48,233 nucleotides of DNA from a virus. Taxonomy: Duplodnaviria > Heunggongvirae > Uroviricota > Caudoviricetes. Made by a program: the position numbers and the translations under genes. The DNA is taken from positions 172,702 to 220,934 of the IMG/VR virus record IMGVR_UViG_2974569193_000001. One strand, written 5' to 3'. Below are positions 1,041-28,757 of the stretch, piece after piece. Below the pieces are notes generated by a model that worked only from the letters and a program-made list of their open reading frames with translations, was not told where the DNA came from and did not search any database. Every line of letters begins with the position of its first letter. The first letter of the stretch is position 1.

Positions 1041-1264
1041 TCGATCACGTCTACCGCCGCGATCCGCGCGGCAAGGACTACGGCGTCCAGCGGATGGACC
1101 TGGGCGAGGCCCTGGCGGTGGTCGCCGCCGAGAAGCAGGACTTTCTCCTGCGGCTCGTCGAGGTCCTGCACGAGAACAATCTCCTGCGCGACGCAGACGT
1201 CCTGGAATTGCTCGGCAAGGGCTGGGGCCTGGAGGCCTACGACGTCCTGTACGAAGACGATTGA
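1037..1264 (+). CDS. hypothetical protein
   Basis: GTGA overlap; stop codon lies inside the -35 box at 1261. Confidence 0.75.
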   Translation: MIDHVYRRDPRGKDYGVQRMDLGEALAVVAAEKQDFLLRLVEVLHENNLLRDADVLELLGKGWGLEAYDVLYEDD

Positions 1265-1313
1265 CAACACTCTCGCGCCAGCATAGAGGTGTCTCCGACG
1301 ACAACGAAGGAGG
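1261..1313 (+). promoter_or_regulatory. class A phage promoter (TTGACA-N17-TAGAGG), forward operator 1265-1282, CGACGACAAC 1296-1305, RBS
   Basis: One of ten copies with the same architecture. Confidence 0.85.
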
Positions 1314-1318
1314 CTTCC

Positions 1319-1690
1319 GTGAAGCTCGCGACCCAAGACCGGACCGATCCCCGCCTGAACGCCGACTACCGCCTGATCAAGGCGGTCTTCTACTACGGCG
1401 GCCCGGCCGAGTACCCGATCCACCTGGACGAACGCTGGAGCGCGGTGACGCCGGCCCAGGTCGAGGACCAGATTTCGGCCCTCTGCCGCGATCTCGCCAA
1501 GTGCTCGGGCAACACCCTGGCGCCGGCGACCTTCTACGAGCGCGCCAAGCTGAGCTTCGCCGAGGTCCCGCCGGTGTCCGACGAGTTCTGGGGCCTGATC
1601 TCCGAGACCACCAAGCAGAACATCCTCGCCATGAAGGATCGCTTCACGGTCCACGGCAGCGGCTTCCTCCTGTCCTGGGCCAAGGCCTGA
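1319..1690 (+). CDS. hypothetical protein
   Basis: GTG start 5 nt after GAAGGAGG. Confidence 0.8.
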   Translation: MKLATQDRTDPRLNADYRLIKAVFYYGGPAEYPIHLDERWSAVTPAQVEDQISALCRDLAKCSGNTLAPATFYERAKLSFAEVPPVSDEFWGLISETTKQNILAMKDRFTVHGSGFLLSWAKA

Positions 1691-2028
1691 TGTGCCATCT
1701 GGCCCACACCCAGGGATGCCGCGAGTGCCCGTTCAAGCGCGCCGCCGCGCCCGGCTGGCTCGGCGCTGACACCCCGGAGGGTTTCCTGCGCGCGACCATG
1801 TCGGGCAGCGTCCAGATGCCCTGCCACATGACCGTCGACTACGAGGCCGACGACTGGCGCGAGCAGGCGGCCGACGCGCCGTTCTGCGCCGGTGCCCTGA
1901 TCTTCCTCAAGAACATCTGCAACCTGCCGCATGATCCGGTGATCGTCGCGGCCCGCGCGCAGGTCGAACCCAACCGCGAAGACTACTTCGCCCGCCCGGA
2001 CGAGTTCCTGGCCCATCACGGAGGCTGA
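1690..2028 (+). CDS. Cys/His-rich putative metal-binding protein
   Basis: TGATG overlap; CxxCPF...PCH...CAG pattern. Confidence 0.8.
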   Translation: MCHLAHTQGCRECPFKRAAAPGWLGADTPEGFLRATMSGSVQMPCHMTVDYEADDWREQAADAPFCAGALIFLKNICNLPHDPVIVAARAQVEPNREDYFARPDEFLAHHGG

Positions 2029-2029
2029 C

Positions 2030-2311
2030 ATGAGCAAGCCCGCCCAATACCGCGTCTACGCCTACACCAAGCGGGTCGCGGCTCAACGACCCTATATCGA
2101 CACCGAGATCGTCCACATGCAGGACCTCCAAGTGAGGCGCTGGTGGGGCTGGCAGACCATCGACGAGGAGGTCGTCCCGACCCACGTCAAGATCAGCCTG
2201 GGCGCGTTCGGCGACACCGGCGGCTGGGTCTCGAAGTTCACCAAGCTGGGGACCTTCGGCCGCGACGGCGTCTTTACCCTGCATCCGCACGTGGAGGCCA
2301 AACTGTCATGA
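2030..2311 (+). CDS. hypothetical protein
   Basis: GGAGG RBS, ATG start. Confidence 0.8.
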   Translation: MSKPAQYRVYAYTKRVAAQRPYIDTEIVHMQDLQVRRWWGWQTIDEEVVPTHVKISLGAFGDTGGWVSKFTKLGTFGRDGVFTLHPHVEAKLS

Positions 2312-2730
2312 AGCTCTTCCTGATCATCCTGGCGACCATCCTGTGGCTGGGCGACACCGCCCGCGCCCAGGCCTTCCGCCTCACCCAGCCGCTCAACTAC
2401 GGCAGCGATCTCCACTACACCGAGACGCGTGACGCCTCGGCCTCCCGTGAACCGCTCAAGCGGGTGATCGCTGACCTGTCGCGCTCGCCGACCGTGACGA
2501 TCGAGCGGGCCTGGACGTATGCGGAACTCGCCGGCGCCCAGACCACCTGCGGCGAGATCATCCTCAATGGTCGCCACCAGAAGTTCGTGCTCCAGCAGGG
2601 GCCGAAGACGGCCGTGATCGGCCCGGCCATGCCCACCGAGTTCTGGAGCCTGGACGTCCAGGACTACCAGTTCCGCAATGCCGGGTGCCTGCGCGACCGC
2701 GCCGCCCAGATCATCCCGCCGAGGTTCTAA
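2308..2730 (+). CDS. putative exported protein (Sec-type signal peptide)
   Basis: MKLFLIILATILWLGDTARA|Q; two Cys in mature part. Confidence 0.75.
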   Translation: MKLFLIILATILWLGDTARAQAFRLTQPLNYGSDLHYTETRDASASREPLKRVIADLSRSPTVTIERAWTYAELAGAQTTCGEIILNGRHQKFVLQQGPKTAVIGPAMPTEFWSLDVQDYQFRNAGCLRDRAAQIIPPRF

Positions 2731-2732
2731 CG

Positions 2733-2800
2733 GCTGGCGTTCTTGTGTTGACAGCGACCCTCATGCGGGCCTAGAACGTCATCGACGACAACAAAGGAGC
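2733..2800 (+). promoter_or_regulatory. class A promoter (TTGACA 2748-N18-TAGAAC), inverted operator 2733-2750, CGACGACAAC 2783-2792
   Basis: Motif match. Confidence 0.85.
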
Positions 2801-2805
2801 CCCGC

Positions 2806-3162
2806 ATGCCGCTGTATGATTTCCCGACCGGCCCGACCACGATGGAGGACATCGAAGCGTTCGTCGCCGGTGCCCAGGCGGTGGTCAACGCCCAGATGGC
2901 GAAGGCCTTCCCGAACGTGAGCCCGCCGGTCCTGACGATCGAGCCGATCCGCCCCAACACCCAGTTCGCCAAGATCGTGTCGAGCGACCGCTCGCAACGC
3001 TCGGTCTGGGCTTTCGTTCGCCTGGAGGACGGCCTGATCTACAAGCCCTCGTCGTGGAAGGTCCCGGCCAAGCACGCGCGCGGCACGATCCATACCGCGT
3101 CCTTCGGAGCCGAGTACGTCGACTGGACCGGCCCGCGCTACATCAAGGACCTGCGCCCGTGA
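2806..3162 (+). CDS. phage hypothetical protein (YKPxSWKxPAKxxRG motif)
   Basis: AAGGAG RBS; first gene after promoter. Confidence 0.85.
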   Translation: MPLYDFPTGPTTMEDIEAFVAGAQAVVNAQMAKAFPNVSPPVLTIEPIRPNTQFAKIVSSDRSQRSVWAFVRLEDGLIYKPSSWKVPAKHARGTIHTASFGAEYVDWTGPRYIKDLRP

Positions 3163-3419
3163 GCGTCTTCACCGTCATCCTGTCGCAGTACGACGAGCAG
3201 CGCTTCTACATCGTCGAGGCCGGCAACAACATCAATGCCCTGGCGCACGCCAAGCGGGTCGCGGAGTCCCATGACGACAACGGCTCGATCTGGAAACTCG
3301 ACATGATGTTCGTCGGCGCGCCCGACCTCGCGATGAAGGCCCAGGGCCTGAAGGTCATCGACCTGCGCGCGACCGTCCATGAGCCCGTTCCCCACGCCCA
3401 GCGGGGAGGCGGCTGCTGA
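3159..3419 (+). CDS. hypothetical protein
   Basis: GTGA overlap. Confidence 0.75.
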   Translation: MSVFTVILSQYDEQRFYIVEAGNNINALAHAKRVAESHDDNGSIWKLDMMFVGAPDLAMKAQGLKVIDLRATVHEPVPHAQRGGGC

Positions 3420-3961
3420 TGGTTGACCTGCTCGACAAGCGCACCATCACCGTCGACCCCTATGCGATCGTCACCGATCGCCTGGAGGGGTCGATCACCC
3501 TGGTGCGCCTCCATGAGGGCGGGCGTTACCGCCATGGTGGCAGTCTCATGTACTATAGCGGCCGGCAGATCAACACCGGGCTCAAAGGCGTCGCCTACAC
3601 CTACGACGACGAGACCAACGCCTCGTCGCTCGAATTCTGGGGCGGCTACGAGGACCGCGTCATGGCGCGCTTCGCGACCCGCGAGGACGCCATGAAGGCC
3701 CTGCACGATGGTCTGGCGGCGCGCGCCGAGGTCGACATCCTGGTCAAGCAGGCCCAGGCCATGCTCCAGGCCCTGGCCGATCTGCGCGACCGCCGGTTCA
3801 AGGAGACCGTCCAGGCCCAGGAGCGCGACGGCGTCCAGCGCGATGGCTGCGAGGTCTGCAACGGCGCGCGCGGCGGTGTGCCGGGCAACGAGAACGTCGT
3901 CGATGGCAAGGTGGTCTGCGACTACTGCCACGTCGACATCATGGATGCGAGGAAAGCCTGA
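3419..3961 (+). CDS. hypothetical protein with C-terminal CxxC...CxxC zinc finger
   Basis: CEVC...CDYC. Confidence 0.8.
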   Translation: MVDLLDKRTITVDPYAIVTDRLEGSITLVRLHEGGRYRHGGSLMYYSGRQINTGLKGVAYTYDDETNASSLEFWGGYEDRVMARFATREDAMKALHDGLAARAEVDILVKQAQAMLQALADLRDRRFKETVQAQERDGVQRDGCEVCNGARGGVPGNENVVDGKVVCDYCHVDIMDARKA

Positions 3962-4182
3962 TGGGCTCCTACATCTATTGCACGAATGGCGACTGCGGCG
4001 CCGGTTTGGGACCCCCTTCGGCCCGTGAGGTCGTGGAGCAGGATCGCAAGTGCCCACATTGCGGTACCTACGTGCCGGTCTACGACTCCATGGCCGACGT
4101 GCTGGAACGCATGGAAGGCCGGATCGAAGAACTGGAAGACGAGGTCAAGGCGTTGAAGATAGGGGACGGTCTTGGGGCTTAG
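3961..4182 (+). CDS. zinc-ribbon/coiled-coil small protein
   Basis: CxxxxC...CPHC then heptad-like acidic tail. Confidence 0.75.
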   Translation: MGSYIYCTNGDCGAGLGPPSAREVVEQDRKCPHCGTYVPVYDSMADVLERMEGRIEELEDEVKALKIGDGLGA

Positions 4183-4528
4183 GAAAATTCCGCCCGCCCA
4201 TTCGTGGCTTTCGGCGCTCGCCTTCAGGACGGCGTTCAAGCGTCCGAGCCACGAGGAGCGCCTCAAGCGCCTCCAGGCTGTCCGCGCTGCCCGTCTTTCG
4301 GGTTCGGAGCTACGTGACCCGCTGATGAAGAAGCTGGTCCGCGACGGCCTCGTGCGCCTGCATCGTCCGTCAAACGCCGAATTCTACAGGCAGACCAAGG
4401 GTGGTTTCATGAAGCGGACCCAGGCTTTCCTCACGCCGGCCGGCGAAGCCTATCTGGCGGACCCGACCACCCATCATGTTCCGAAGTCGGAGCGCACCGA
4501 GAAGGTCAAGGGGATTCGGGGCAAATGA
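4172..4528 (+). CDS. hypothetical protein, possible winged-helix
   Basis: MKKLVRDGLV...FLTPAGEAYL pattern; start uncertain. Confidence 0.7.
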   Translation: MGLRKIPPAHSWLSALAFRTAFKRPSHEERLKRLQAVRAARLSGSELRDPLMKKLVRDGLVRLHRPSNAEFYRQTKGGFMKRTQAFLTPAGEAYLADPTTHHVPKSERTEKVKGIRGK

Positions 4529-4977
4529 TCAACTGGAAAGACCCCTTTGGCCTGGAAGCCCGCCGCATCGAGCGTGAGCAGCGTTGGGAAGAAGAGGCCA
4601 AGGCGACCCGCGCCGCGCGCCTGAAGCGGGCGCAGGCGGCCGGGACCCATCGCATCAAGCAGACGGACGTTGACACCTTCTACGTGATGATCCTCGACCC
4701 GCACGGGCGTTGGCATTTCGTGTCCCGCGCCGGCCGGGTGACCGCCCAGTCCGCCGACAAGTGCTACAAGGGTGCGACCCTGGAGGCGGCCAAGACGATC
4801 GCGTCCGAGATCGAGCGCATCTTCCGCAACGACGTCGCCGACGAGGTCAAACGGTTGAAGAGCCACCAGAATTACTACAACCCTCCCGAGTACGAGGCCA
4901 AGCCTTACGACGTCATCAAGGACGATGATATCGCGTTCTGTGACGCGGTCGACGCGATGTGGAGGACGCGGGCGTGA
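4525..4977 (+). CDS. hypothetical protein
   Basis: ATGA overlap. Confidence 0.8.
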   Translation: MINWKDPFGLEARRIEREQRWEEEAKATRAARLKRAQAAGTHRIKQTDVDTFYVMILDPHGRWHFVSRAGRVTAQSADKCYKGATLEAAKTIASEIERIFRNDVADEVKRLKSHQNYYNPPEYEAKPYDVIKDDDIAFCDAVDAMWRTRA

Positions 4978-7243: not shown

Positions 7244-7245
7244 CC

Positions 7246-7788: not shown

Positions 7789-8315
7789 AGCAAGAAGCCT
7801 GGGACAGTCTGCTTCTCAACCTGCGCAGCGCCGCCCAGTTGAAGGATCGCGAGGCCTGGGACGACGCGATCCAGGCCCTGGAGAACGCCTTCGACGAGCA
7901 CGTCGACGGCCCGCTGGAGACCCACCCCAACACCCTGGCCTGGAAGAAGAGCGCCGACGAGCGCAAGCGCTTCTTGGCGGGCTGGGCGTACTGGGGTAGC
8001 GGCGCCCGCGATGTCCCCGACGACTACCGGGGCGATCCGCACTTCAACCGGGGGCGAACGGGCGCGGCGATCGCCCAGGACATGAGTGGCCTCCTGCGGG
8101 TTTTCGAGGCCTGCACCCACCAGGGCTCCAAGATCGAGGGTGGTGACAACACCGTGCTGCCGCGCTACCCCGCCGTCTACGGCTCCTACGCGGTTCAAAT
8201 CTGCCGTGGATGTCGTGGGTGGACCCAGGACCGTCACGGTCCGAAAACTTGGCATCCCGGCCCGTACTACGACGCCTACGAGAAGGCGATGCGCGAGGAA
8301 GAGGAGCGCTGCTAA
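7779..8315 (+). CDS. hypothetical protein
   Basis: ATG overlapping upstream 3' end; CxxC near C-terminus. Confidence 0.75.
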   Translation: MALKQEAWDSLLLNLRSAAQLKDREAWDDAIQALENAFDEHVDGPLETHPNTLAWKKSADERKRFLAGWAYWGSGARDVPDDYRGDPHFNRGRTGAAIAQDMSGLLRVFEACTHQGSKIEGGDNTVLPRYPAVYGSYAVQICRGCRGWTQDRHGPKTWHPGPYYDAYEKAMREEEERC

Positions 8316-9637: not shown

Positions 9638-9690
9638 TTGACAACACTCTCACGCCAACATAGAACCCTCCTCGACGACAACGAGGAGGG
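9638..9690 (+). promoter_or_regulatory. class A promoter (TTGACA 9638-N17-TAGAAC), forward operator 9642-9659, CGACGACAAC 9673-9682
   Basis: Motif match. Confidence 0.85.
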
Positions 9691-10114: not shown

Positions 10115-10356
10115 TGCGCGGCGTCGACGTCAACGAGTCCTATCAGACCGAGCAGCGCTCGTTCGATGGGCAACTGGCCAGCAAGTACGGCGCCGCCTCG
10201 GGCGGACCGGACCTGACCCGCGAGCAGTGGCAGGCGATGCAGCGGGCCGACCGCAAGCGTTTCGCCGGCGTCACCATGGGCCTCTTCGTGTTCGTATTCT
10301 GCCTCGCCTGGGTGATCAACGATCTGACCGGCTTTGGCAACGCGCTGCCGTTCTGA
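10114..10356 (+). CDS. small membrane protein
   Basis: TAATG overlap; C-terminal hydrophobic helix. Confidence 0.75.
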   Translation: MRGVDVNESYQTEQRSFDGQLASKYGAASGGPDLTREQWQAMQRADRKRFAGVTMGLFVFVFCLAWVINDLTGFGNALPF

Positions 10357-10733
10357 TGAAGCCGCTCGACGAACGCATCCGCGAAGCTATCGCCACTCCT
10401 CGTCCGGCCTGGATCGAGAAGAAGGGCGACCGCTTCCACGTCATCACCAAGGGCGTGCTGTTCCCCAACACGCGCAACGCCCTCTCCAAGTCCTGGAGCC
10501 GCCGCGCCGGCGCCCTCGCCTGCATCCGCCAGGATTACCTCACCCTGCTGGAGGGCGACTGCCCGCTGCCGGAGGTGACCCAGGCCCAGCGCGACGCCTA
10601 CCAGTTCCAGGGGGCCGAGCGCCGCGAAGCCGTCGAGGCCCTGAGCCGCGAACTGGGCATCCACCAGGACGAAATCCGCCGCGCCCTGCGCAACCTCGAA
10701 GGGCGTGGCCTGATCCGTTTCGAGGCGCGCTGA
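10356..10733 (+). CDS. hypothetical protein with C-terminal winged-helix
   Basis: EALSRELGIHQDEIRRALRNLEGRGLI. Confidence 0.8.
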   Translation: MKPLDERIREAIATPRPAWIEKKGDRFHVITKGVLFPNTRNALSKSWSRRAGALACIRQDYLTLLEGDCPLPEVTQAQRDAYQFQGAERREAVEALSRELGIHQDEIRRALRNLEGRGLIRFEAR

Positions 10734-11043: not shown

Positions 11044-11110
11044 CTTGGCGTTTGTGTGTTGACAGGGCAAGTCCGGTTCTGTAGACCTCTGCTCGACGAC
11101 AACGAGGAGG
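11044..11110 (+). promoter_or_regulatory. class A promoter (TTGACA 11059-N17-TAGACC), inverted operator 11044-11061, CGACGACAAC 11094-11103
   Basis: Motif match. Confidence 0.85.
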
Positions 11111-11957: not shown

Positions 11958-13991
11958 TTGCTGAATTTCCAACCGTTTAAGACGGCCGTGGCGGCGCAGT
12001 TCGCCAAGATGTCCAAGGGCCAACTCTACCGCGTCGAGGTCGACAAGGACCTCCTGTGGCAAACCTATCTCGCCGCCTTCCCGCCGGGCACGGACCCGAT
12101 GTTCCGCGCGCGCACCGAGCACAACTGCTCGTGCTGCCGCGCCTTCGTGCGCCAGGGCGGCGACGTCGTGGCCATCGTCGACAACAAGATCGTCACCCTG
12201 TGGGACATCACCATTCCGGGCGAGCCGGCCTACCAGCAGGTCGCCGACAGCCTCGCGGGCCTGATCCGCTCGCGGCCGATCGCCGACGTTTTCCTGCACG
12301 ACCAGAAGTCGATCGGCACCGACCGCAGCGTCGAGTCGATGCTGGGCGGCGACGTGACCTGGAACCACTTCTACTGCGACGTGCCCGAGCGCTTCGTCAA
12401 GAAGCGCGCCGACATCCCCACGGCGCTGCACGAGCCGCGCATGGCGGCCGAGACGCTGCTGCGCGCGGTCACCGAAATCAGCCGCGAGGCGGTCGAGACC
12501 GTGCTCGAACTGGTCGCCCAGAAGTCGGTCTACCGGATCGAGGAGCACAAGGCGACGGTCGAGGCCTTCCGGGCGATGCAGAACAGCTTCGCCGGCAAGT
12601 CGGGCCTGGACGCGACCCTGCACGCCTGGACCACGGCCACCAAGGGCGAGGTCTGGGGTTCGGTGATCGGCATCAAGAACACCGTCATCGGCTCGCTGCT
12701 GCTCGACCTGTCGGGCGACATGGAGATCGAGGACGCGGTCAAGAAGTACGAGACCAAGGTCGCGCCGCAGAACTACAAGCGCACCTCGACGATCGCCACC
12801 AAGCGCCAGATCGAGGCCGCCAAGAAGACGCTGGAAGACCTGGGCCTGACCTCGGCCCTGGAGCGCCGCTATGCCGTCCTGACGGACGTGTCGATTAACG
12901 ACGTCCTGTTCGCTGATCGCTCGGCCAAGGCGGCGCTGAACGCGGACGTGTTCTCGGAGATGGCGGCCGAGGTGGGCGAGAAGACCAAGTCGTTCGACAA
13001 GGTCGAGGAGGTCCCGATCGACCGCTTCCTGAGCGACATCCTGCCCAAGGTCACCTCGATCGAGGCCCTGGTCGAGAACCGTCTGGCGGGCAACTTCGTC
13101 AGCCTGATCGCGCCCAAGAACCCGACGGCCGGCAACCTCTTCAAGTGGGGCAACAACTTCTCCTGGTCCTACGCGGGCGAGGTTGCCGACTCCATCAAGC
13201 AGCGCGTCAAAGCGGCGGGCGGCAACGTCTCGGGCGACCTCTGCTGCCGTCTGGGCTGGTACAACTACGACGACCTCGACTTCCACATGTTCGAGCCGGG
13301 CGGTGGTCACATCAACTTCCGCAACAAGCGCTCGGGCGCCACTGGCGGCCAACTGGACGTCGACATGAACGCTGGGCGCGGCACCACGCGCGCGCCGGTC
13401 GAGAACATCTTCTATGGCGATCGCCGCCGGATGAAGGAGGGCGTCTACGAACTGAAGGTCCACCAGTTCGACAACCGCGATCAGCCGCGTGATCCGGGCT
13501 TCGAGGTCGAGATCGACTACCTGGGCGCGGTGACCAAGTTCAGCTACGCCAAGGCTTTGCGCCTGGGCGAATACGTCACGATCGCCAAGTTCAAGTACAC
13601 CCACGCTGGTGGCGTGGAGTTCATCTCGTCTCTGCCGTCGTCCTCGGCCAGCAAGGACGTCTGGGGCGTGAAGACCGAGACCTTCCGCAAGGTCAACGTC
13701 GTCATGCTGTCGCCCAATTTCTGGGACGGCGAGCCGGGCGTGGGCAACAAGCACTTCTTCTTCATGCTGGAGGGCGGCATCAACGAGGACGGCGCGCGCG
13801 GCTTCTACAACGAGTTCCTCAAGGACTCGCTGAGCCCGCACCGCCGCGTCTTCGAGATGCTGGGCTCCAAGCTGAAGCCGGCGCCGGCCGCCGAGCAACT
13901 CTCGGGCCTGGGCTTCTCGTCGTCCAAGCCTGACACCCTGACCGTCAAGGTCTCGGGGGCTTTCACCCGCGTTCTCAAGATCAAGTTCTAG
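11958..13991 (+). CDS. 677-aa phage protein with HxCxCC motif and C-terminal YfaP/DUF2135-like segment
   Basis: GGAGAGG RBS + TTG; HNCSCC; DDLDFHMFEPGG...GGQLDVDMN...PVENI. Confidence 0.85.
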   Translation: MLNFQPFKTAVAAQFAKMSKGQLYRVEVDKDLLWQTYLAAFPPGTDPMFRARTEHNCSCCRAFVRQGGDVVAIVDNKIVTLWDITIPGEPAYQQVADSLAGLIRSRPIADVFLHDQKSIGTDRSVESMLGGDVTWNHFYCDVPERFVKKRADIPTALHEPRMAAETLLRAVTEISREAVETVLELVAQKSVYRIEEHKATVEAFRAMQNSFAGKSGLDATLHAWTTATKGEVWGSVIGIKNTVIGSLLLDLSGDMEIEDAVKKYETKVAPQNYKRTSTIATKRQIEAAKKTLEDLGLTSALERRYAVLTDVSINDVLFADRSAKAALNADVFSEMAAEVGEKTKSFDKVEEVPIDRFLSDILPKVTSIEALVENRLAGNFVSLIAPKNPTAGNLFKWGNNFSWSYAGEVADSIKQRVKAAGGNVSGDLCCRLGWYNYDDLDFHMFEPGGGHINFRNKRSGATGGQLDVDMNAGRGTTRAPVENIFYGDRRRMKEGVYELKVHQFDNRDQPRDPGFEVEIDYLGAVTKFSYAKALRLGEYVTIAKFKYTHAGGVEFISSLPSSSASKDVWGVKTETFRKVNVVMLSPNFWDGEPGVGNKHFFFMLEGGINEDGARGFYNEFLKDSLSPHRRVFEMLGSKLKPAPAAEQLSGLGFSSSKPDTLTVKVSGAFTRVLKIKF

Positions 13992-14427: not shown

Positions 14428-14480
14428 TTGACAACACTCTAACGCCAACATAGAAGGGCCTCCGACGACAACGCCGGAGG
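14428..14480 (+). promoter_or_regulatory. class A promoter (TTGACA 14428-N17-TAGAAG), forward operator 14432-14449, CGACGACAAC 14463-14472
   Basis: Motif match. Confidence 0.85.
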
Positions 14481-14488
14481 CCCTTTTC

Positions 14489-14827
14489 ATGCAAGCCGAG
14501 AACTACACGCAGAACCTGAGCGACTGGTCCCAGTACCGCAACAACGGGCGCGGCGGCTGCGGCCTCAAGCGCGCCGAGGGCACAATCTCCAAGCGCGCCT
14601 ATGAGCGGCTGATCCGCGAGGCCAAGCGCGACTTCCTGTCGGGCTTCGACATCGACTGGTCCAAGTACGGCGAGCCGACCGTCACCTTCTACGACATGCT
14701 GACCGCCCAGATCGAGTGGCCTAACCTGAAATCGGGTCAGTTGATCACGCTGACCCATATTTGGTTCGAGCGGAAGACCGGCGAAATCCTCCAGGCCGGC
14801 TCCAACCACGGGAGCCTGACCCTGTGA
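14489..14827 (+). CDS. hypothetical protein
   Basis: GGAGG RBS. Confidence 0.85.
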   Translation: MQAENYTQNLSDWSQYRNNGRGGCGLKRAEGTISKRAYERLIREAKRDFLSGFDIDWSKYGEPTVTFYDMLTAQIEWPNLKSGQLITLTHIWFERKTGEILQAGSNHGSLTL

Positions 14828-15785: not shown

Positions 15786-15852
15786 GTTGGCGCGAGAGTG
15801 TTGACAGAAGCGTCCTGACGCCATAGAACCCTCTCGACGACAACGAAGGAGG
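15786..15852 (+). promoter_or_regulatory. class A promoter (TTGACA 15801-N17-TAGAAC), inverted operator 15786-15803, CGACGACAAC 15835-15844
   Basis: Operator is the exact reverse complement of 17843-17860. Confidence 0.88.
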
Positions 15853-17532: not shown

Positions 17533-17864
17533 CCGACTACGACGCCTGCCTGACTAACTGGGTCGTCTGCCTGACGCCGATCCCGGTCGTCGTCCGGGGC
17601 GACGCCGCGCCCGAGCCGGGCGTGGTGCTCGTCGGCGAGATCATGCAGGACCGGAAGGGGCGCTGGCCGGACGGTCGTCTCGTTCACACCTCGGTGCTCC
17701 TGAGCGCGCGGGCGCTGATCAAGCCGGGCGAGGTCGTGCGCACCCTGCGCAGCCACTACCTACTGGGCCGGCCCGCCGAGGAGATCACCCTGCGCCATAG
17801 CTTGGGGGCTATGTTCGCCCAGGTCGTCATCCAACCGCTTGACAACACTCTCGCGCCAACCTAG
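17529..17864 (+). CDS. hypothetical protein (LxGxI...DG..HTS...RT..S.Y.LG motif)
   Basis: ATGA overlap; 3' end runs through the next promoter. Confidence 0.75.
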   Translation: MTDYDACLTNWVVCLTPIPVVVRGDAAPEPGVVLVGEIMQDRKGRWPDGRLVHTSVLLSARALIKPGEVVRTLRSHYLLGRPAEEITLRHSLGAMFAQVVIQPLDNTLAPT

Positions 17865-17926
17865 AAGGGTCGTCGACGACAACGCCTGTCCGAAATTTGT
17901 ACACATTTTTCGGACATCAGAGGAGG
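17839..17926 (+). promoter_or_regulatory. class A promoter (TTGACA 17839-N17-TAGAAG), forward operator 17843-17860, CGACGACAAC 17874-17883, plus 30-bp palindrome 17887-17916
   Basis: Motif match; TGTCCGAAA...TTTCGGACA. Confidence 0.85.
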
Positions 17927-20299: not shown

Positions 20300-20301
20300 G
20301 C

Positions 20302-20369
20302 CTTGGCTGCAATGTGTTGACAAGCGGACGCGGCCTCCTGTAGAAGACTCCTCGACGACAACAGGAGGC
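20302..20369 (+). promoter_or_regulatory. class A promoter (TTGACA 20317-N18-TAGAAG), inverted operator 20302-20319, CGACGACAAC 20353-20362
   Basis: Motif match. Confidence 0.85.
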
Positions 20370-20373
20370 CCAC

Positions 20374-21189: not shown

Positions 21190-21199
21190 CAGGTGCGTC

Positions 21200-21724
21200 A
21201 TGGGCCTGACGGGGTGCGGCTTCGCGCTCCTGACGGCCGGCTCGGTCGCCTACGCGGTTGACCGTGGGGGCAGGGCGCTCAAGACGAGCGGCCTGCTCCT
21301 GTTCGCCACCTGGGCGTTCTCGGTCACCATCGGCTCGACCCTCGTGGCGGGCAACAAGCCCTACGTCTATGCCTGGGTGGACGGCATGTTCGCCGGCGCC
21401 GTTGGGGTGATGCTCACCGCGCGGTTCCAGCGCTGGCGGGCTGGGCTGTTCGCCCTGGCGATCCTCCAGATGTTCCTCCACCTCGCCATGATCGGCATCT
21501 GGGATTTCTCCCTGGCCGCGCGGCGGCTTCATGTCTTCTCGCTCAACCTCACCTACGCCCTGGAACTCTTCGTCCTCACCATCGGAGCGGCGGCCTATCG
21601 TCCAGGCGAGCGCGACGACGTGCCCGAGATCATCGAGGTCCAGCACCACATCGTCGGCAAGGATGACGGGACCCTGCTCTACTGGCTTGAGTGTGTTGAC
21701 AAAGCCAGACGTCCCGTCCTATAA
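21200..21724 (+). CDS. multi-pass membrane protein
   Basis: 4-5 hydrophobic segments; 3' end runs through next promoter. Confidence 0.75.
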   Translation: MGLTGCGFALLTAGSVAYAVDRGGRALKTSGLLLFATWAFSVTIGSTLVAGNKPYVYAWVDGMFAGAVGVMLTARFQRWRAGLFALAILQMFLHLAMIGIWDFSLAARRLHVFSLNLTYALELFVLTIGAAAYRPGERDDVPEIIEVQHHIVGKDDGTLLYWLECVDKARRPVL

Positions 21725-21748
21725 GCACCTCGACGACAACGAGGAGGC
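21681..21748 (+). promoter_or_regulatory. class A promoter (TTGACA 21696-N18-TATAAG), inverted operator 21681-21698, CGACGACAAC 21731-21740
   Basis: Motif match. Confidence 0.85.
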
Positions 21749-21752
21749 CAGC

Positions 21753-22184: not shown

Positions 22185-22187
22185 GCC

Positions 22188-23616: not shown

Positions 23617-23617
23617 C

Positions 23618-24268
23618 ATGACCATCACGTGCATGAACAACGAGGCCGTGATCCACAACCCCAAGCACGGGGTGATCCGGTCGGGCACGGTGGTCGTCAT
23701 CGACTATTCCGAGGAGCCTGACCTCGACGGGCTGATCGGCCGCGTCACCATCGCCCAGGGCCGCGATACGGTCGAGGTCGCCGCTGGCCCCCGCGTCATC
23801 TCGGTCTTCCCGTGCAAGGTGCGTCCGCTGAAGATGGGCGAGCGCATCGGCGATCCCGAGGCCAACGCCCACCTTGCCCAGATCGCCGAGATGGTCGGCG
23901 AGGGCGACGACATCGGCGCGGCCTGGGAGAGCGTCCAGGCGATCATCACCGAGCGCGACGCCTTCAAGGCCGCGATCGACACGGCCCTGGTCCAGATCAG
24001 CGGTGGTCTCTGCTATTTCACGGCCGACGCCAAGCACGCCCAGTTGCGTGACGCCGAGAAGACCCTGGAGCGGGCGCTGAACGGCGGGCAGGCCCCGTTC
24101 GAGAAGCGCGTTCACGGCGAGGAACCGGGCGACGACTGGAGCCTGGAGCTTCACGTCTTCCACGCCGCCAACAACCCCAACCTGTCCGAGCCCACGCGGG
24201 AGCTTTTCAAGACCCTGTGGAAAGCCTACTGCGCCCTGGAACAACGCTGCGAAGGAGCCGCCCTGTGA
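23618..24268 (+). CDS. hypothetical protein
   Basis: GGAGA RBS. Confidence 0.8.
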   Translation: MTITCMNNEAVIHNPKHGVIRSGTVVVIDYSEEPDLDGLIGRVTIAQGRDTVEVAAGPRVISVFPCKVRPLKMGERIGDPEANAHLAQIAEMVGEGDDIGAAWESVQAIITERDAFKAAIDTALVQISGGLCYFTADAKHAQLRDAEKTLERALNGGQAPFEKRVHGEEPGDDWSLELHVFHAANNPNLSEPTRELFKTLWKAYCALEQRCEGAAL

Positions 24269-24813
24269 ACATCCTCCAAGACCTCCTCGCCCATCCCGAG
24301 CACATGACCGACGGCTACGCCTCGGCGATCTCGATGCGCATCGGCGACACCCTGGCCAGCCCTCGGCGCCAGGACCTCTTCGACCTCGCCACCGCCCTGA
24401 CGAGCATCTCCCACGCCCTGTTGGCCCAGGCGCCGCAGGCGACGCGCGACGCCATCATCCACGACAAGTCCGACATGGGTGACCCGATCATGGCCGCCTT
24501 CCGCCTGGGGCAGTTGTCCATGGCCGGCGAGATCATGGGCTACGAGGCCAGCCGCCGGGCTGACGATGACATTGTCGAGGTGGTGCGCGAACACCAAGCC
24601 TTCCTCGCCGACATCAGCGCGGGGCGCGGCACCCAGCGCGAACTCGCCGCCCAGTTCGGGATGTCGGGGCGTGAAGTCCGGCTCATCCTGCGCAAGCTGG
24701 GGAGCAAGGGCCTCGTCAATACCGTGCTCGGCAAAAAGGTCGGCGAGTTCGAGGCCCGGCTGACGCCGCTGGCCTCCTCGATCCTCGACCAGATCGAGAA
24801 GCGCGCCGCATGA
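24265..24813 (+). CDS. winged-helix-turn-helix DNA-binding protein
   Basis: TQRELAAQFGMSGREVRLILRKLGSKGLV...LTPLA. Confidence 0.8.
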   Translation: MNILQDLLAHPEHMTDGYASAISMRIGDTLASPRRQDLFDLATALTSISHALLAQAPQATRDAIIHDKSDMGDPIMAAFRLGQLSMAGEIMGYEASRRADDDIVEVVREHQAFLADISAGRGTQRELAAQFGMSGREVRLILRKLGSKGLVNTVLGKKVGEFEARLTPLASSILDQIEKRAA

Positions 24814-25418
24814 AGCCGCTCGTCACCCTGCGCGCCTGTCCGCCCGGCCCCTTCCGGTTCAAAGGTTCGCTCTTCCTCAAGACCGAGTATGGCACGATCG
24901 TCGGCCGCAAGGACGGCCTGGGCGAACCGCACCGCTACGAGATGACCGACCGCTCGGACGTCTACTGCCTGGGTTCGGGCGAGTATTTCTGGGGCGGGGT
25001 CAACGGCGACGTCGAGGCTCGCGAGAACCTGATGGTCGAGCCGATCGACATCGAGGCGCTCGACAAGATCAGCGAGACCGCCAACATGGTCCAGGCGATC
25101 ATGGAGGCCGTGGGCTTTGCCTCGCTCTACGACAACGGCGCGGGCATGTACGCCCGCAACGTCCTGCGCGCCATCCAGTCGGGCAAGTACGAGTCGTTCG
25201 AGGCCCTGCTGCCGCCGCATGTTCCCAGGGATGGAACGGTGGTGCGGGAACTGGACCAGGACGTCTCCCAGGAGACGCGCGACCTGATCGGCGACGCCTT
25301 CGGGACCGTGGCGCTGATCCAGGTCGAGGACCCGGAGGCCACGCCGGTGACCTTCACCCTGGCCGAGGTCGACGCCCTGCTGAGCGCCCAGCGCCGCAAG
25401 CTGGAGGCAGACCTGTGA
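24810..25418 (+). CDS. hypothetical protein
   Basis: ATGA overlap. Confidence 0.8.
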   Translation: MKPLVTLRACPPGPFRFKGSLFLKTEYGTIVGRKDGLGEPHRYEMTDRSDVYCLGSGEYFWGGVNGDVEARENLMVEPIDIEALDKISETANMVQAIMEAVGFASLYDNGAGMYARNVLRAIQSGKYESFEALLPPHVPRDGTVVRELDQDVSQETRDLIGDAFGTVALIQVEDPEATPVTFTLAEVDALLSAQRRKLEADL

Positions 25419-26008
25419 GGCTGGATCGCACGCTCTCCGAGGTCGAGTTCCGCGTCCTGACCTATCTGGGCCTGCGCAAGGGTAAGGGCACCACGGTGGG
25501 TCAAGTCGCCGCAAATGTCCCCGGCGCCGGCGGCATCGCGGGCGAGGTGCTCGAAAGCCTGCGGGACTTGCAGGTGATTCGCAAGATCGACGCCGAGCAT
25601 TTCTGGAGCTTCGTGATCCACGAGCGCGGCGAGGCCTATCTGAAGGGCAAGACCCCGCACGAGGTCAAGAAGCGGCGCAAGAAAGCGCTGCCCGAGCCGC
25701 CGCCGCTGATCGATCGGCTTCAGACGATCCTCGACGAGAGCATCGCCGGCATCGAGCATCCCTCGCAGGTAGCGATCAACGTTGCCGTGCCCCGCGCCGA
25801 CCTCCAGGAGGCCGTCAGGGGCCTGAAGCTGCGTGAGGTGTCCACCGGCCTGCCCGAGGACTTCCTGGCCGCCTGGGACGATCTGCGGCGGGCGATCACC
25901 GCGATCGAGACGGCGAGCCTTCATTCGATCGGCGAGGCCGTCCGCTGGCTCGAAGAAGAGCGGCAGAAATTTGACAACATGGTTCGCGACACGGCGAGAA
26001 ACGCATGA
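25415..26008 (+). CDS. protein with N-terminal winged-helix-like domain
   Basis: EFRVLTYL...TVGQVAA...VLESLRDLQVI...IHERGEAYL. Confidence 0.75.
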   Translation: MRLDRTLSEVEFRVLTYLGLRKGKGTTVGQVAANVPGAGGIAGEVLESLRDLQVIRKIDAEHFWSFVIHERGEAYLKGKTPHEVKKRRKKALPEPPPLIDRLQTILDESIAGIEHPSQVAINVAVPRADLQEAVRGLKLREVSTGLPEDFLAAWDDLRRAITAIETASLHSIGEAVRWLEEERQKFDNMVRDTARNA

Positions 26009-26331
26009 CCCCCAAGACCTTCATCGACAAGCTGCGCGTCGGCGCCCAGAAGGCGCTCGCCCGCTCCAAGGCCTGGACGCCCGAGGAGAACATCATCCTC
26101 CAGACCCTGGTCTGGGCGCCGGCCAACATCAAGCAGCGCTCGGACCTCTACGTGGCCGGGACCATGCGGGGCATGCTGGCGTTGATCTCGACGATGAGCG
26201 GCCGGGTCTCCGAGGAGATCAAGACCCTGCTCTGGATGGCCGGCGAGGCGACCGAGATCGACGCGCCTGTCCCGGATGATCAAGTCCAGGCGGCTTTGAT
26301 GGCGCTCGACGGCCTCCACGCGAGGGCCTGA
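26005..26331 (+). CDS. hypothetical protein
   Basis: ATGA overlap. Confidence 0.8.
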   Translation: MTPKTFIDKLRVGAQKALARSKAWTPEENIILQTLVWAPANIKQRSDLYVAGTMRGMLALISTMSGRVSEEIKTLLWMAGEATEIDAPVPDDQVQAALMALDGLHARA

Positions 26332-26332
26332 C

Positions 26333-26749
26333 ATGCTGTCGCGTGCGGCGCGTAGGGCGCAAATGACGTTGCAAACCGACGAACCCAATCTGATCGGCAA
26401 GGGCTACTGGCACAAGGGTCAGTGGATTCGCAACACCATGTCGATGCGGCTGAAGGCCTATATCGACCGCGTACCTGACGTGCGGTTCTTCGAGGGCGAG
26501 AAGGGCTACTATCCGGGCACCATGCTCGACCTGGGTGGTGACCAGTGGAGCATCACGCCGATCACCGGCCGGCTTAAGCGGAACGGCGAGGAAATCCCCG
26601 CCCCGCCGTTCTTCGACATCTCGTCCCGGCATTACAGCCTCGCCCTGATGCGCAAGCTGGAGAAGGAAGGCGCGCTGGTCGCCGCCGTGCTCGACGTGCG
26701 CTATGACGGCAAGACGACCGTGGCGCGCTTTGATCCTGTGGCCCGCTGA
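26333..26749 (+). CDS. hypothetical protein
   Basis: In operon; start uncertain. Confidence 0.75.
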   Translation: MLSRAARRAQMTLQTDEPNLIGKGYWHKGQWIRNTMSMRLKAYIDRVPDVRFFEGEKGYYPGTMLDLGGDQWSITPITGRLKRNGEEIPAPPFFDISSRHYSLALMRKLEKEGALVAAVLDVRYDGKTTVARFDPVAR

Positions 26750-27033
26750 TGCCCAAGCTCTGGAACAAGCCTGTCCCGCTGAAGGCCCAGCCGATCCCCT
26801 ACCAGATCGAGCGCTACCTGCTCGACCACCGCGACGTGCGGCTGGTGCGCGGGCGTGATGGTTGGTTCAGACTCCAGGGCCGAACCGGCGTCAACCACTT
26901 CTCCCGCGTGCCTGGATCGGGGCGCTATTCGGCGCGCACGGCGCTGCAATGCGTCGACAGCCTTTGCACGATCGAGTCCTACGACGACCGCAACCGGCCC
27001 GACATCATCGGCCTGCATCGGGACGTCATCTGA
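26749..27033 (+). CDS. hypothetical protein
   Basis: TGATG overlap. Confidence 0.75.
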   Translation: MPKLWNKPVPLKAQPIPYQIERYLLDHRDVRLVRGRDGWFRLQGRTGVNHFSRVPGSGRYSARTALQCVDSLCTIESYDDRNRPDIIGLHRDVI

Positions 27034-27398
27034 TGTGGTTCGATCCCAAGGTCCGCGCCCGGCGCCTGATGCTGCCCCGCAACGACGGCAAGTTCCGCTT
27101 CAACGGCGACGACTTCCCGTCGCTGATCTGCGCCGCCACGGCCGCCGTGCTGACCGACAGTATGTGGCAGAGCTTCGACCAGCATCCGATCCTGCTGCGT
27201 CGGACTGACAGCGACTTCCAACTCGATTGCGATCCTATCGGCCTGGAGGAAGATCGCCTGCTGTTCGACCAGGACATCGTGATCTCCAACCGCATCGCCA
27301 TGAAGCTTGTCGAGATGGGCTACCTGCTCGTCGTGACCAACACCGAGCGCGGCGCGCCCCAGCGCCTGGAGGTGGCGGACGTGGAGCGTCGGACGTAA
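27033..27398 (+). CDS. hypothetical protein
   Basis: TGATG overlap; MKLVEMGYL. Confidence 0.75.
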   Translation: MWFDPKVRARRLMLPRNDGKFRFNGDDFPSLICAATAAVLTDSMWQSFDQHPILLRRTDSDFQLDCDPIGLEEDRLLFDQDIVISNRIAMKLVEMGYLLVVTNTERGAPQRLEVADVERRT

Positions 27399-27679
27399 TG
27401 GCGAGGTCGCGTGTACGCGGCGCCCGAGGGCGCCGGCGCTTTGTCGAGGTGCGCGAGCAGCTTCAATGCGGCCCCTGGAAGCACCTGATCCGGGCCTATC
27501 GCGGCTGGCGGCGCTATAACCCCGAGACCGGGGCCATGGACATGTCCGAGCGCTACAGCAACGAGACCATTCAGCGCATGGTGACCAGCGGGACGCTCGA
27601 CGTCCACGAGTTCGACGAAGACGGCGTGGTCCAGGTCTATCGCCTGGGGGCCAGCTTCATCGGCTGGCGGTCGTCATGA
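27398..27679 (+). CDS. hypothetical protein
   Basis: TAATG overlap. Confidence 0.75.
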   Translation: MARSRVRGARGRRRFVEVREQLQCGPWKHLIRAYRGWRRYNPETGAMDMSERYSNETIQRMVTSGTLDVHEFDEDGVVQVYRLGASFIGWRSS

Positions 27680-28023
27680 ACTGGCAGGCCCACCCCTACT
27701 ACGCCCAGTTGGGCTTCTCGCCTCATCAAGCGCGCTACTGGGATGTCGAGAAGGCCATGGTGCTCAACCTGTGGGATGACATCGGCCGCGTTGGCGGGCT
27801 CGAAGAGCCCAGCCACTGGAAGCTCGTCTGGCGGCCCTTGCAAGTGGGCCGTGAAGGGCGATATGTCCTGGTCACCGCCCAGGCGGGGATCGCCTACCCC
27901 ATGGCGTATCCGAAGGGCTATCGCGGCGCGATCGTGCAGATCGCCGCCGACGAGGACACCCGGCTGCGGCCGACGGCGCGGGACGAGACAGGGCGGGTTC
28001 TGGAGTACCGGGGCATCCAGTGA
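27676..28023 (+). CDS. hypothetical protein
   Basis: ATGA overlap. Confidence 0.75.
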   Translation: MNWQAHPYYAQLGFSPHQARYWDVEKAMVLNLWDDIGRVGGLEEPSHWKLVWRPLQVGREGRYVLVTAQAGIAYPMAYPKGYRGAIVQIAADEDTRLRPTARDETGRVLEYRGIQ

Positions 28024-28640
28024 AGAGCGATTGGCGCGAGACCTTGGCGATGGCGTTCGACCGACCTCTCCCCGTGGAGGCGCCGGCCGATCCCTATGCC
28101 TTCGACCCCAACGCGCCGCCGCTGATCCTCGACTTGACCCCCGAGGAGAAGCTGTCGCTGACCGAGTGCCGCTGGGCGGCGCTGGACGCGATGGGCGAGG
28201 TGATCGGCGAGTTCTGGGCGATCCCCCAGGCCGCCGAGGGTCTGGCCCATATGCTCTATCCGGGGCTGGCGGCCTATGCGCGCGGTGGTCATCGCGGGCG
28301 CCTGAAGGCCAAGCGCCTGCGCCGGCTCTGCGAGGCCCAGAACTGGCGCTGCTGCTACTGCCATGGGGCGATGCGGCTCCCCGACGAGTGCGACAGCCCC
28401 AACGAGCCGGATATGGCGACCCTGGAGCACGTGCATCGTTCGACCGACGGCGGCGGGAGCACCTGGGACAACCTGATCGCCGCCTGCCAGACCTGCAATT
28501 CCCATCGCGGCTCGGTCACGCCGCTCAAGTGGTGGAAGCTGCGTCAGAAGCTCCTCCCGGTCTGGCCCGCCTGCTCGACGATCACCGAGGCGGCGCGTTA
28601 CGCCCTGCGCGGCTATGGCCTGCTGCGACGCGGCTGGTAG
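28020..28640 (+). CDS. HNH endonuclease-domain protein
   Basis: CCYC...ATLEHVHRSTDGGGSTWDNLIAACQTCNSHRG (McrA/HNH-type His-Me finger). Confidence 0.9.
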   Translation: MKSDWRETLAMAFDRPLPVEAPADPYAFDPNAPPLILDLTPEEKLSLTECRWAALDAMGEVIGEFWAIPQAAEGLAHMLYPGLAAYARGGHRGRLKAKRLRRLCEAQNWRCCYCHGAMRLPDECDSPNEPDMATLEHVHRSTDGGGSTWDNLIAACQTCNSHRGSVTPLKWWKLRQKLLPVWPACSTITEAARYALRGYGLLRRGW

Positions 28641-28642
28641 GG

Positions 28643-28691
28643 TACAACCGTTTTTGGTTGTAAAGGCGTTTTACAACCGTTTTTGGTTGTA
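28643..28691. repeat. two identical 20-bp palindromes TACAACCGTTTTTGGTTGTA (28643-28662, 28672-28691)
   Basis: Exact direct repeat; each copy is TACAACC-N6-GGTTGTA. Confidence 0.95.
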
Positions 28692-28757
28692 GCGCGACTG
28701 TGTTGACGGGGTTACGAAAACAGACTAGATGTAGGGCCTCGACGACAACGCAGGAGA
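28688..28757 (+). promoter_or_regulatory. class A promoter (TTGACG 28703-N17-TAGATG), divergent inverted operator 28688-28705, CGACGACAAC 28740-28749
   Basis: Motif match. Confidence 0.8.

Follow-up and report, generated by a model that had tools for sequence, protein, structure and literature searches.

The 48,233-nt stretch of DNA analyzed here (the window) is the right arm of the 220,934-bp genome of a phiCbK-like phage, one of the giant Caulobacter phages of the phiCbK group. PhiCbK itself is the standard phage for the Caulobacter cell-cycle model. The initial annotation had described ten promoters of the form TTGAC(A/G)-N17/18-TA(G/T)A in the window, each coupled to an 18-bp element. All ten promoters were recovered at the positions given, as were exactly ten matches to CAACAC-N5-MGCYA (four on the plus strand, six on the minus strand), against 0.09 expected from dinucleotide shuffles, none of which (0/100) reached ten. 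The overlap of the CAAC/GTTG end with the -35 hexamer that had been claimed was seen in both arrangements, and 15786-15803 is indeed the exact reverse complement of 17843-17860. Promoters with a forward element in the spacer are referred to as type A and those with an inverted element upstream as type B (Table 1); along the window, their succession is A B A B A B A B B B.

Table 1. Promoter cassettes and candidate regulator genes in the window (window coordinates).
Feature	Position	Strand	Remarks
Type A cassette	1261..1305	+	-35 TTGACA at 1261; forward site in spacer (1262-1281); -10 TAGAGG; leader CGACGACAAC 1296-1305
Type B cassette	2734..2792	+	Inverted upstream site 2734-2753 overlapping -35 at 2748; 18-bp spacer; leader 2783-2792
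Type A cassette	9638..9682	+	Site 9639-9658; orientation switched relative to phiCbK/Karma orthologue
Type B cassette	11045..11103	+	Site 11045-11064; -35 at 11059; leader 11094-11103
Type A cassette	14428..14472	+	Site 14429-14448; leader in loop of GC-rich hairpin, then TTTT
Type B cassette	15787..15844	+	Consensus site 15787-15806; exact reverse complement of 17840-17859 except central W
Type A cassette	17839..17883	+	Site 17840-17859; extra hairpin between leader and ribosome-binding site; ATG ~17932
Type B cassette	20303..20362	+	Site 20303-20322; -35 at 20317; leader 20353-20362
Type B cassette	21682..21740	+	Site 21682-21701; closest such promoter upstream of candidate gene 24265
Type B cassette	28689..28749	+	Weakest site (17.8 bits); -35 TTGACG at 28703; arm TAGCG
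Small HTH protein, PHROG 13027	10356..10733	+	Weak HTH_36/TrmB match; homologue in Colossus
Candidate regulator, 182 aa, PHROG 12757	24265..24813	+	Predicted C-terminal MarR/ArsR-like winged helix; candidate by fold and distribution
376-aa protein, PHROG 10876	31400..32530	+	Homologue is second gene behind a type-B promoter in Brevundimonas island; family also in Colossus

The ten promoters also share an exact leader, CGACGACAAC, which begins 5-8 nt (mostly 6) past the -10 hexamer; judging from this gap, it covers roughly the first ten nucleotides of the mRNA (+1 to +10). In 9/10 cassettes, the leader is immediately followed by a GGAGG ribosome-binding site, which at 17839 comes only after the further hairpin. 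The hairpin and TTTT at 14428 look like a terminator for upstream read-through, and the phiCbK record has a terminator annotated at the equivalent place. An eleventh TTGACA-N17-TAGA sequence, at 33018 in the window, has neither the element nor the leader and adjoins a promoter of a different class. The housekeeping promoter form is found in 10/10 cassettes in the window and genome-wide at 23/25 sites, which have TA.[AT] 16-18 bp after TTGAC(A/G). The Caulobacter housekeeping -10 consensus associated with Malakooti and Ely is said to be TAnAWC.

The unit that recurs at these promoters, yTGWC-N11-GCCAr, is a pseudo-dyad of 20-21 bp whose core (AACACTCTCrC) is asymmetric. Bases 1-5 of the -35 hexamer serve as one of its arms, and the two conserved blocks, CAACAC and CGCCA, lie about one helical turn apart. 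From the hexamer, the unit extends downstream into the spacer in type A (about -31 to -15, center about -23) and upstream in type B (about -49 to -33, center about -41). Its dyad symmetry is weak, with 4/5 arm positions matching around an asymmetric center.

We then took a census of these sites over whole genomes, on both strands, using a 20-bp matrix with a cut-off of at least 17 bits. Our phage carries about 25 sites (5 forward and 20 inverted), on both strands and between 52 and 201 kb, and 23-25 were counted in each of CcrRogue, Karma and phiCbK, compared to a single one in CcrColossus. Thus, the "ten-promoter regulon" originally proposed holds as a count for the window, but its size does not, as there are about 25 such promoters genome-wide; cassettes with the exact leader number 19. 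Forward and inverted sites include 18-bp exact reverse complements of each other. Every site in our phage sits on a -35 hexamer except a tandem upstream copy at genome position 165059; a copy 33-34 bp upstream of another site is likewise present in Karma and phiCbK, and such tandem copies show that a functional promoter is not needed for the site to be present. When scored by itself, the 14 bp outside the hexamer gave 21 matches above 14 bits genome-wide, compared to 2.35 in Markov controls. All but two of the 21 adjoin TGTCAA or TTGACAA, the two exceptions being one sequence present in both terminal repeats.

A comparison of ten orthologous type-B promoters between our phage and phiCbK revealed that the TGGC arm is identical in 10/10 and GTG is 93% identical, compared to 41% for the upstream flank and 64% for the spacer. 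The promoter before the MAYDIP gene (9638) is type A in our phage and in Rogue; since its orthologues in phiCbK and Karma carry the arm upstream, the orientation of the site has switched. The suggestion that the element is not a simple duplication is therefore supported, both by an arm that is conserved while its flanks diverge and by this change of orientation. The genome-wide search that had been proposed, extended to relatives, tied the site to the -35 box and uncovered tandem arrays in other mobile elements. Together, the coupling to the -35, the conservation, the orientation change and the tandem arrays indicate that the site behaves as one selected at the promoter and not as a relic of duplication.

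Outside the phages, the same 19-20-mer fused to TTGACA was found in a Brevundimonas integrase island, which has genes in common with phiCbK-like phages, and in a related provirus. Arrays of 2-3 copies, spaced 32-36 bp apart, occur in provirus L180, in the Brevundimonas island (L202) and in a related contig, and the upstream tandem copies have no -10. In contrast, Caulobacteraceae chromosomes were not enriched for the site, whether searched with TGGC-N6-GTGTTGACA (3 sites versus 2 for the control, 121 genomes), with the free element (1 match versus 2, 201 genomes) or with up to two mismatches (68 matches versus 55, 61 genomes). In very large collections, some lone exact matches are no more than expected by chance, and the lone sites in L179, L187 and L184 may therefore mean nothing. 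Since host chromosomes show no enrichment, the phage-encoded factor proposed earlier is more probable than one of host origin; the putative factor is most likely encoded by the phage or by a mobile element.

In the 2023 RNA-seq study of phiCbK, the early class comprises 41% of genes and includes tgrL and the replication genes, and early transcripts top out at 15 min and then drop. In our phage, tgrL and the replication genes sit behind promoters of the type described here (promoter at genome position 161617). That study defined temporal classes without cis elements, and Gill et al. 2012 touched on promoters only in passing. Our literature searches found no description of phiCbK promoters and temporal control, and no published description of the -35-overlapping site.

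Three genes had been named as possible sources of a regulator, of which 24265 gains modest support from a MarR-like predicted fold and from its restriction to site-bearing phages. Its product is present in our phage, Rogue, Karma, phiCbK and BL57 and has no match in Colossus, although this agreement with the clade depends on one contrast, that with Colossus, and the distribution is common to many other genes. The predicted fold is a winged helix (pLDDT 77-90), and among the Foldseek matches listed, MarR- or ArsR-type winged-helix transcriptional regulators predominate overwhelmingly; sequence matches to the Pfam TrmB/MarR models were below threshold. On these predictions, we regard the 24265 protein as the best candidate factor. 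The other two fared less well. For 25415, neither family nor fold evidence was obtained, its N-terminal sequence being winged-helix-like by eye only, and its alignment in Karma and phiCbK is confined to the C-terminal ~100 residues. For 31400, there are weak winged-helix leads only, and the protein also occurs in CcrColossus, which lacks this site. The small HTH protein at 10356 is likewise a poorer candidate, because of its Colossus homologue. No homologue of 24265 or of another phage DNA-binding-fold protein was found in the partial records of the island and the provirus.

We put at about 0.5 the probability that the element is the operator of one putative sequence-specific DNA-binding protein controlling the whole early promoter class of the phiCbK group. 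The promoters are near-consensus for sigma-73 (TTGACA, 17-18-bp spacer, TAGAAG-like -10, +1 leader) and would fire on unmodified host RNA polymerase. Since the -35 core TTG-A-CAA reads almost the same on both strands, the hexamer can carry such an operator in either of two layouts. A protein bound in either layout would lie on -35 bases, and the simplest action that we infer is thus competition with sigma region 4, through which the putative factor would shut off early transcription in a coordinated way or damp it by feedback. The 24265 gene is itself inside an early operon, which, if it encodes the factor, would result in negative feedback. Operators of MarR-family repressors usually lie across the -35 or the -10, where polymerase is blocked, and the predicted MarR/ArsR-like winged helix of 24265 would be similar in kind. 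However, the palindromes read by MarR dimers are short, with their arms close together, whereas here the arms are 11 bp apart around an asymmetric center; with this center and its weak dyad, the site would suit a monomeric protein that has two reading heads better than a dimer of the classical MarR kind.

The type-B center near -41 is the textbook class II activator position, and activation is therefore possible as well. A rather unlikely alternative is a position-dependent dual regulator of the marbox kind, a monomeric or otherwise asymmetric factor that would activate or recruit polymerase at type B and repress at type A, thereby switching expression between two subsets of early operons. Marboxes, bound by MarA/SoxS/Rob in Escherichia coli, are also non-palindromic, bipartite and about 20 bp long, with an orientation tied to position relative to the -35; they lie on the -35 at class II promoters and in the spacer where they repress (PMC12052159), and both layouts recur here in an asymmetric bipartite site with blocks about one helical turn apart, oriented according to where it lies with respect to the -35. 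The types also mostly alternate in the window. On the other hand, marboxes serve a host stress regulon, are read by AraC/XylS monomers and are unrelated in sequence, whereas here both layouts stand on consensus promoters: the -35 is equally perfect and the -10 good in both types, so that neither looks activator-dependent. Nor is an AraC/XylS-family protein detectable in the phage, as PF12833 gave no match at E <= 1 in a six-frame search of its genome. A more elaborate scheme strikes us as unlikely: one clade-specific phage protein would use the near-palindromic -35 core as an operator arm and dock on either side of it, helping or tolerating polymerase from upstream and blocking it from the spacer, so that about 25 early promoters of a model jumbo phage would be reprogrammed both ways, with an anti-leader small RNA carrying the same operator.

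It is also quite unlikely that a host protein, or host RNA polymerase itself, reads the site as an extended promoter element that Caulobacteraceae mobile elements exploit for very strong early transcription. This would explain its presence, fused to TTGACA, in the Brevundimonas island and provirus, for which no regulator common with the phage was found. However, host chromosomes (61-201 genomes) lack enrichment, an element contacted by polymerase should fail when mirrored into the spacer, the upstream tandem copies have no -10, and the genes that the island has in common with phiCbK-like phages mean that its sites may share their origin with those of the phage.

Alternatively, the cassettes may have spread without any binding, as mobile recombination linkers, the inverted form arising by inversion about the palindromic -35 core. 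The model for this would be the PeSLs of the T4-type phages RB49 and phi1, in which strong early promoters of the sigma-70 type, each with a hairpin, recur many times between small accessory genes and coincide with mosaic breakpoints; PeSL stem-loops mediate module shuffling (PMC2839356). Here too, BLAST placed homology breakpoints versus Rogue, Karma or phiCbK within about 10-65 bp of several cassettes, at the boundaries of shuffled modules, and the genes after the 14428 cassette differ between our phage and Rogue. A clear hairpin can be folded around the leader in about 10/19 cassettes; a T-run follows in only 3/19. However, the description given of PeSLs is that of modules for recombination and transcription that have no operator in common, whereas our cassettes have an additional conserved block. 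Among paralogues and orthologues, the type-B -35/-10 spacer varies freely and the arm outside the promoter is fixed, which points to selection on the arm and not recent copying, and recombination requires homology, not a fixed mirror geometry. We therefore consider spread without binding very unlikely, even though it can account for dispersal and is compatible with an operator. A role at the RNA level, in which forward and inverted copies pair as long-range duplexes in read-through transcripts (e.g., as RNase III processing sites between operons), is barely credible despite the perfect 18-nt complementarity of the copies at 15786 and 17843 and the A/B alternation over most of the window, since the central five bases of neighboring A/B pairs show uncompensated differences (e.g., 1265 versus 2735; 9642 versus 11046), 20/25 sites have the same orientation and most thus have no partner, and nothing at the RNA level accounts for the strict fusion to the -35.

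Several other known systems were considered and set aside. A search of the phage genome for the Q-family proteins of Q-type antitermination (PF03589 and PF06530) returned no match. Type-B sites differ from a sigma-54 promoter (TGGCAC-N5-TTGC), where GG and GC are spaced by exactly ten bases, in that TGGC is followed by TTGA nine bases on, two more than in sigma-54, with GA replacing GC. For the TgrL/XRE regulon of phiCbK and Caulobacter, the published TgrL ChIP-seq matrix (S2 Table, PMC10688885) scored below the genome 99.9th percentile at most promoters, with no consistent position.

As an operator, the element has a parallel in L5, a cluster A mycobacteriophage, whose repressor site contains TGTCAA, the complement of a -35 hexamer. 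There, one phage protein uses 20-30 non-dyad sites across the genome; some of these lie within early promoters, Pleft for instance, and act as true operators (PMC6550527). In contrast to our sites, which are on the -35 hexamer (except for the 165059 tandem copy) and in both orientations in a phage regarded in the literature as lytic, those of L5 are 13-14 bp long, have one orientation relative to transcription and are mostly off promoters, where they block elongation.

Circuits of many promoters under one operator are familiar from lambda, L5 and P22. Since the logic is already known from these phages, the appeal of the present case is specialist rather than general; the two-way layout is the unusual part. 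What emerges is a concrete map of about 25 early promoters, with a shared putative operator of two geometries, a common +1 leader and one named candidate regulator. If the operator reading is true, it would explain the joint switch-off of the early class, and Caulobacter genetics would gain a compact and orthogonal pair of promoter and operator.

The window covers bases 172,702–220,934 of a 220,934-bp phage record, which carries direct terminal repeats and has a nucleotide identity of ~92% to Caulobacter phages RBC63, RBC8, BL64, and CcrRogue and ~78% to phiCbK, Karma, and Magneto. Small plus-strand genes fill window positions 1–31,200; the equivalent region of the CcrRogue record has 74 annotated genes, nearly all hypothetical. 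An Rfam search of the window matched no family. The initial annotation had proposed a set of ten promoters here, between positions 1261 and 28749, each with an operator overlapping its −35 hexamer. All ten promoters were recovered, and the element pattern gave ten matches (four forward and six inverted) versus 0.09 expected from shuffled sequences; as also claimed, 15786–15803 and 17843–17860 are exact reverse complements. The set itself was drawn too small, since a 20-bp matrix applied to the whole genome identified 25 sites scoring at least 17 bits, 5 of them forward and lying in the promoter spacer (type A) and 20 inverted and lying upstream over the −35 (type B). The feature is therefore real and more extensive than first described. 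A −10 hexamer stands at the correct distance for 23 of the 25 sites, and the same search returned 25 sites in Rogue, 25 in Karma, 23 in phiCbK, and 1 in Colossus. Along window 1261–28749, the sequence of types is A B A B A B A B B B, an alternation that may be due to chance because sites outside the window are mostly type B.

We then considered the anatomy of the site. When 98 sites were placed in a common orientation, the consensus was nTGTCAACACtctcncGCCAnc (~29 bits), and the whole site reads yTGWC-N11-GCCAr. An asymmetric center, AACACTCTCrC, separates two arms that repeat each other imperfectly in inverted form (TTGAC or TTGTC versus TTGGC); one arm consists of bases 1–5 of the −35 hexamer. 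The near self-complementarity of TTG-A-CAA allows the site to be placed over the hexamer in both directions, which explains the mirror geometry noticed earlier. With a 17-bp spacer, type A spans approximately −31 to −15 and type B approximately −49 to −33. Background occurrence away from promoters had been named as one observation that would count against such a regulon; genome-wide, the GCCA/TGGC arm never stands alone. The 14 bp outside the hexamer gave 21 genome-wide matches above 14 bits, versus 2.35 in Markov controls, and all but two of these adjoin TGTCAA or TTGACAA, the two exceptions being the same sequence, found once in each terminal repeat.

A third conserved block had been missed. 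The exact 10-nt leader CGACGACAAC is present in 10/10 window promoters, starting 5–8 nt (mostly 6) past the −10, and in nine of them it is immediately followed by a GGAGG ribosome-binding site. Genome-wide, the gap from −10 to leader is 5–6 nt in 16 of 18 measurable cassettes (promoter, operator, and leader together). Given this gap, CGACGACAAC probably corresponds to bases +1 to +10 of the mRNA. The whole genome contains 19 exact-leader cassettes, on the minus strand at 135–157 kb and on the plus strand at 115 kb and 165–201 kb; anti-SD/SD pairing was seen in ~10 of the 19. Part of the leader, GACAAC, is similar to the −10 form TAnAAC as well as to the operator core. Colossus lacks the operator, and its promoters fall into classes of their own, flanked by other sequences; that it has nevertheless retained a related leader, GACGAWCAA, argues that the leader predates the operator. 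At window 14451–14490, and also at genome 135,338 and 115,248, a 9-bp GC-rich hairpin has the leader in its loop and is followed by TTTT. Such a hairpin resembles an intrinsic terminator for read-through transcription from upstream; transcripts initiated at the cassette would lack its 5′ arm, because that arm precedes the cassette's own start.

Coordinates of leader copies and of operator sites in the phage and in other mobile elements
Feature	Record	Position	Detail
CGACGACAAC leader, 10 nt	Window	1296, 2783, 9673, 11094, 14463, 15835, 17874, 20353, 21731, 28740
Type-B promoter and non-coding stretch (L190)	Phage genome, outside the window	52,081–52,230	Operator site at 52,081–52,100
Operator sites	Provirus L180	1358–1447	Three copies at spacings of 34 and 36 bp
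Operator sites	Brevundimonas MAG island L202 (G003:C4:36000-55999)	7951–7970, 12534–12585	Two copies 32 bp apart, third 4.6 kb off

Comparison with phiCbK across ten orthologous type-B promoters showed an identical TGGC arm in 10/10 pairs, with 93% identity in the GTG, 100% in the −35, 64% in the spacer, and 41% in the upstream flank. This pattern of conservation is evidence that the site is under selection. The MAYDIP gene is preceded by a type A promoter in this phage and in Rogue, but by one with its arm upstream in phiCbK and Karma; this switch of layout indicates that types A and B are interchangeable in evolution. BLAST homology to Rogue, Karma, or phiCbK breaks near cassettes (window 2728–2735, 11034, 14493, 20297, and 28713), for several of them within a few tens of bases, and the genes after the 14428 cassette differ between this phage and Rogue. 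From the position of these breakpoints, cassettes mark mosaic boundaries, a behavior likewise known from PeSL (PMC2839356).

The site also occurs apart from a promoter of its own. Karma and phiCbK each have a full copy, lacking a −10 of its own, 33–34 bp upstream of another copy; the corresponding position of this phage (genome 165,059) is occupied by a weaker copy. These copies are evidence that TTGACA may belong to a binding site, beyond its role as a −35. Outside the clade, the exact 19-mer was found in four further IMG/VR contigs and one Brevundimonas genome, with only 11 occurrences among 185,579 species genomes. In the provirus, the copies lie upstream of a separate TTGACG-N17-TATATA promoter; the Brevundimonas island adjoins a phage-type integrase, and a related metagenome contig repeats the tandem pattern. 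Provirus and island have homologous first genes behind their sites. The island has three genes in common with the phage: those for a PHROG 10876 protein and for a RuvC-like resolvase, in the same order as at window 31400–34819, and one whose product has no significant Pfam match. Because of these shared genes, neither the island nor, through its first gene, the provirus is wholly independent of the phage. Scanning metagenomes for further contexts yielded 19 stretches, most of them single matches in low-GC contigs without a common neighbor gene, which we treated as chance; tandem copies were confined to the contig related to the island. The lone sites in three other records (L184, L179, and L187) are probably also at chance level.

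Expression of 41% of phiCbK genes reaches its maximum by 15 min and declines afterwards; this early group includes tgrL and the replication genes (PMC10688885 and preprint), so there is an early shut-off in need of explanation. In our phage, tgrL lies on the minus-strand arm directly downstream of the type-B promoter at 161,617, and the replication arm on that strand has eight further sites; with early genes behind them, the cassettes are thus early promoters. Both promoter types are near consensus and should work without an activator. Since the site overlaps −35 bases in both layouts, a putative factor would compete with sigma region 4, and coordinated repression is the simplest reading of these sequences, to which we give a probability of about 0.5. 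Its main rival is a position-dependent dual action resembling that of marboxes, asymmetric elements that cover the −35 of class II promoters and mediate repression when located in the spacer (PMC12052159). The PeSL-like boundary behavior is compatible with either repression or dual action. A sigma-54 promoter was rejected on its spacing. Coordinated repression has its nearest functional analogue in the L5 repressor, with 20–30 asymmetric sites per genome, some in promoters (PMC6550527), and the system is best filed under the familiar "one operator, many phage promoters" design. A literature search found the two-orientation operator described in no paper.

We therefore asked whether a host or a phage factor reads the site. 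A host regulon was rejected, as three pattern searches of Caulobacteraceae stayed at control level: the type-B pattern in 121 genomes (3 sites versus 2 in the control), the free element in 201 genomes (1 versus 2), and the 16-mer with up to 2 mismatches in 61 genomes (68 versus 55). Since no host regulon uses the site, a factor encoded by the mobile elements is more economical. The earlier suggestion of a phage-encoded factor is accordingly favored over a host one. A regulator common to the phage and the other site-bearing elements was sought by blastp and phmmer, which found only the three shared proteins; of these, PHROG 10876 occurs in Colossus, and the L180, L179, and L187 records lack it.

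Three HTH-like candidates had been put forward, among which the 24265 protein fared best. Its counterparts in Rogue, Karma, and phiCbK share 74–86% identity with it, Colossus gave no match, and a collection of 5.8 billion proteins contains only four clusters of it, all from phiCbK-like phages. Its gene (window 24265–24813) lies within the operon of the type-B promoter at 21696, and the phiCbK orthologue is encoded at about 192,981–193,511 of NC_019405. The predicted fold of its C-terminal 80 residues (pLDDT 77–90) has three helices and a beta-hairpin wing, and the Foldseek matches listed are overwhelmingly MarR- or ArsR-type winged-helix regulators, with weak E-values (~3e-3). It is the best candidate factor; co-occurrence of protein and site across phages turns on one contrast, Colossus, and is suggestive only. 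The 25415 ORF has no family match. By eye, the N-terminal 70 residues of 25415–26008 resemble a MarR/PadR-type winged helix; because conservation in Karma and phiCbK is limited to the C-terminal 100 residues, this domain may be found in the Rogue lineage only. The 31400 protein (PHROG 10876) gave weak winged-helix leads. Against solved structures, the candidate sequences returned nothing significant. TgrL was rejected because its published matrix does not match the site, and Q-type antiterminator, AraC-family, and HTH_17/AlpA-like proteins for want of family matches in the phage. An AlpA-like guess by eye for the first gene behind the provirus and island sites found no Pfam support, and the small zinc-finger protein beside the L179/L187 site, which may itself be chance, has no phage homologue.

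A second promoter class consists of GTCGTGAATC fused to TTGACA, often followed by GTTAACC (in the window, 33046–33061). It has 18 copies genome-wide, at 19–117 kb, and marks the structural/late arm; its upstream block is a 15-bp dyad centered on a GANTC (CcrM methylation) site, and its Colossus analogue is GCCAGNAWTC-TTGACA. Separately, window 40320–40480, in the terminal repeat (also genome 1796–1952), contains six tightly spaced GCGTTTTGACGTC-like repeats, which could be iterons or another binding-site array. The terminal repeat also carries CtrA-box cassettes, a class distinct from the leader cassettes.

One operator-bearing promoter precedes a short non-coding stretch in which, at genome 52,169 and before a terminator hairpin, lies CCTCTGCGTTGTCGTC, complementary to the leader and part of the ribosome-binding site. 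Together, the operator and such an anti-leader RNA would constitute two layers of control on one class of genes.
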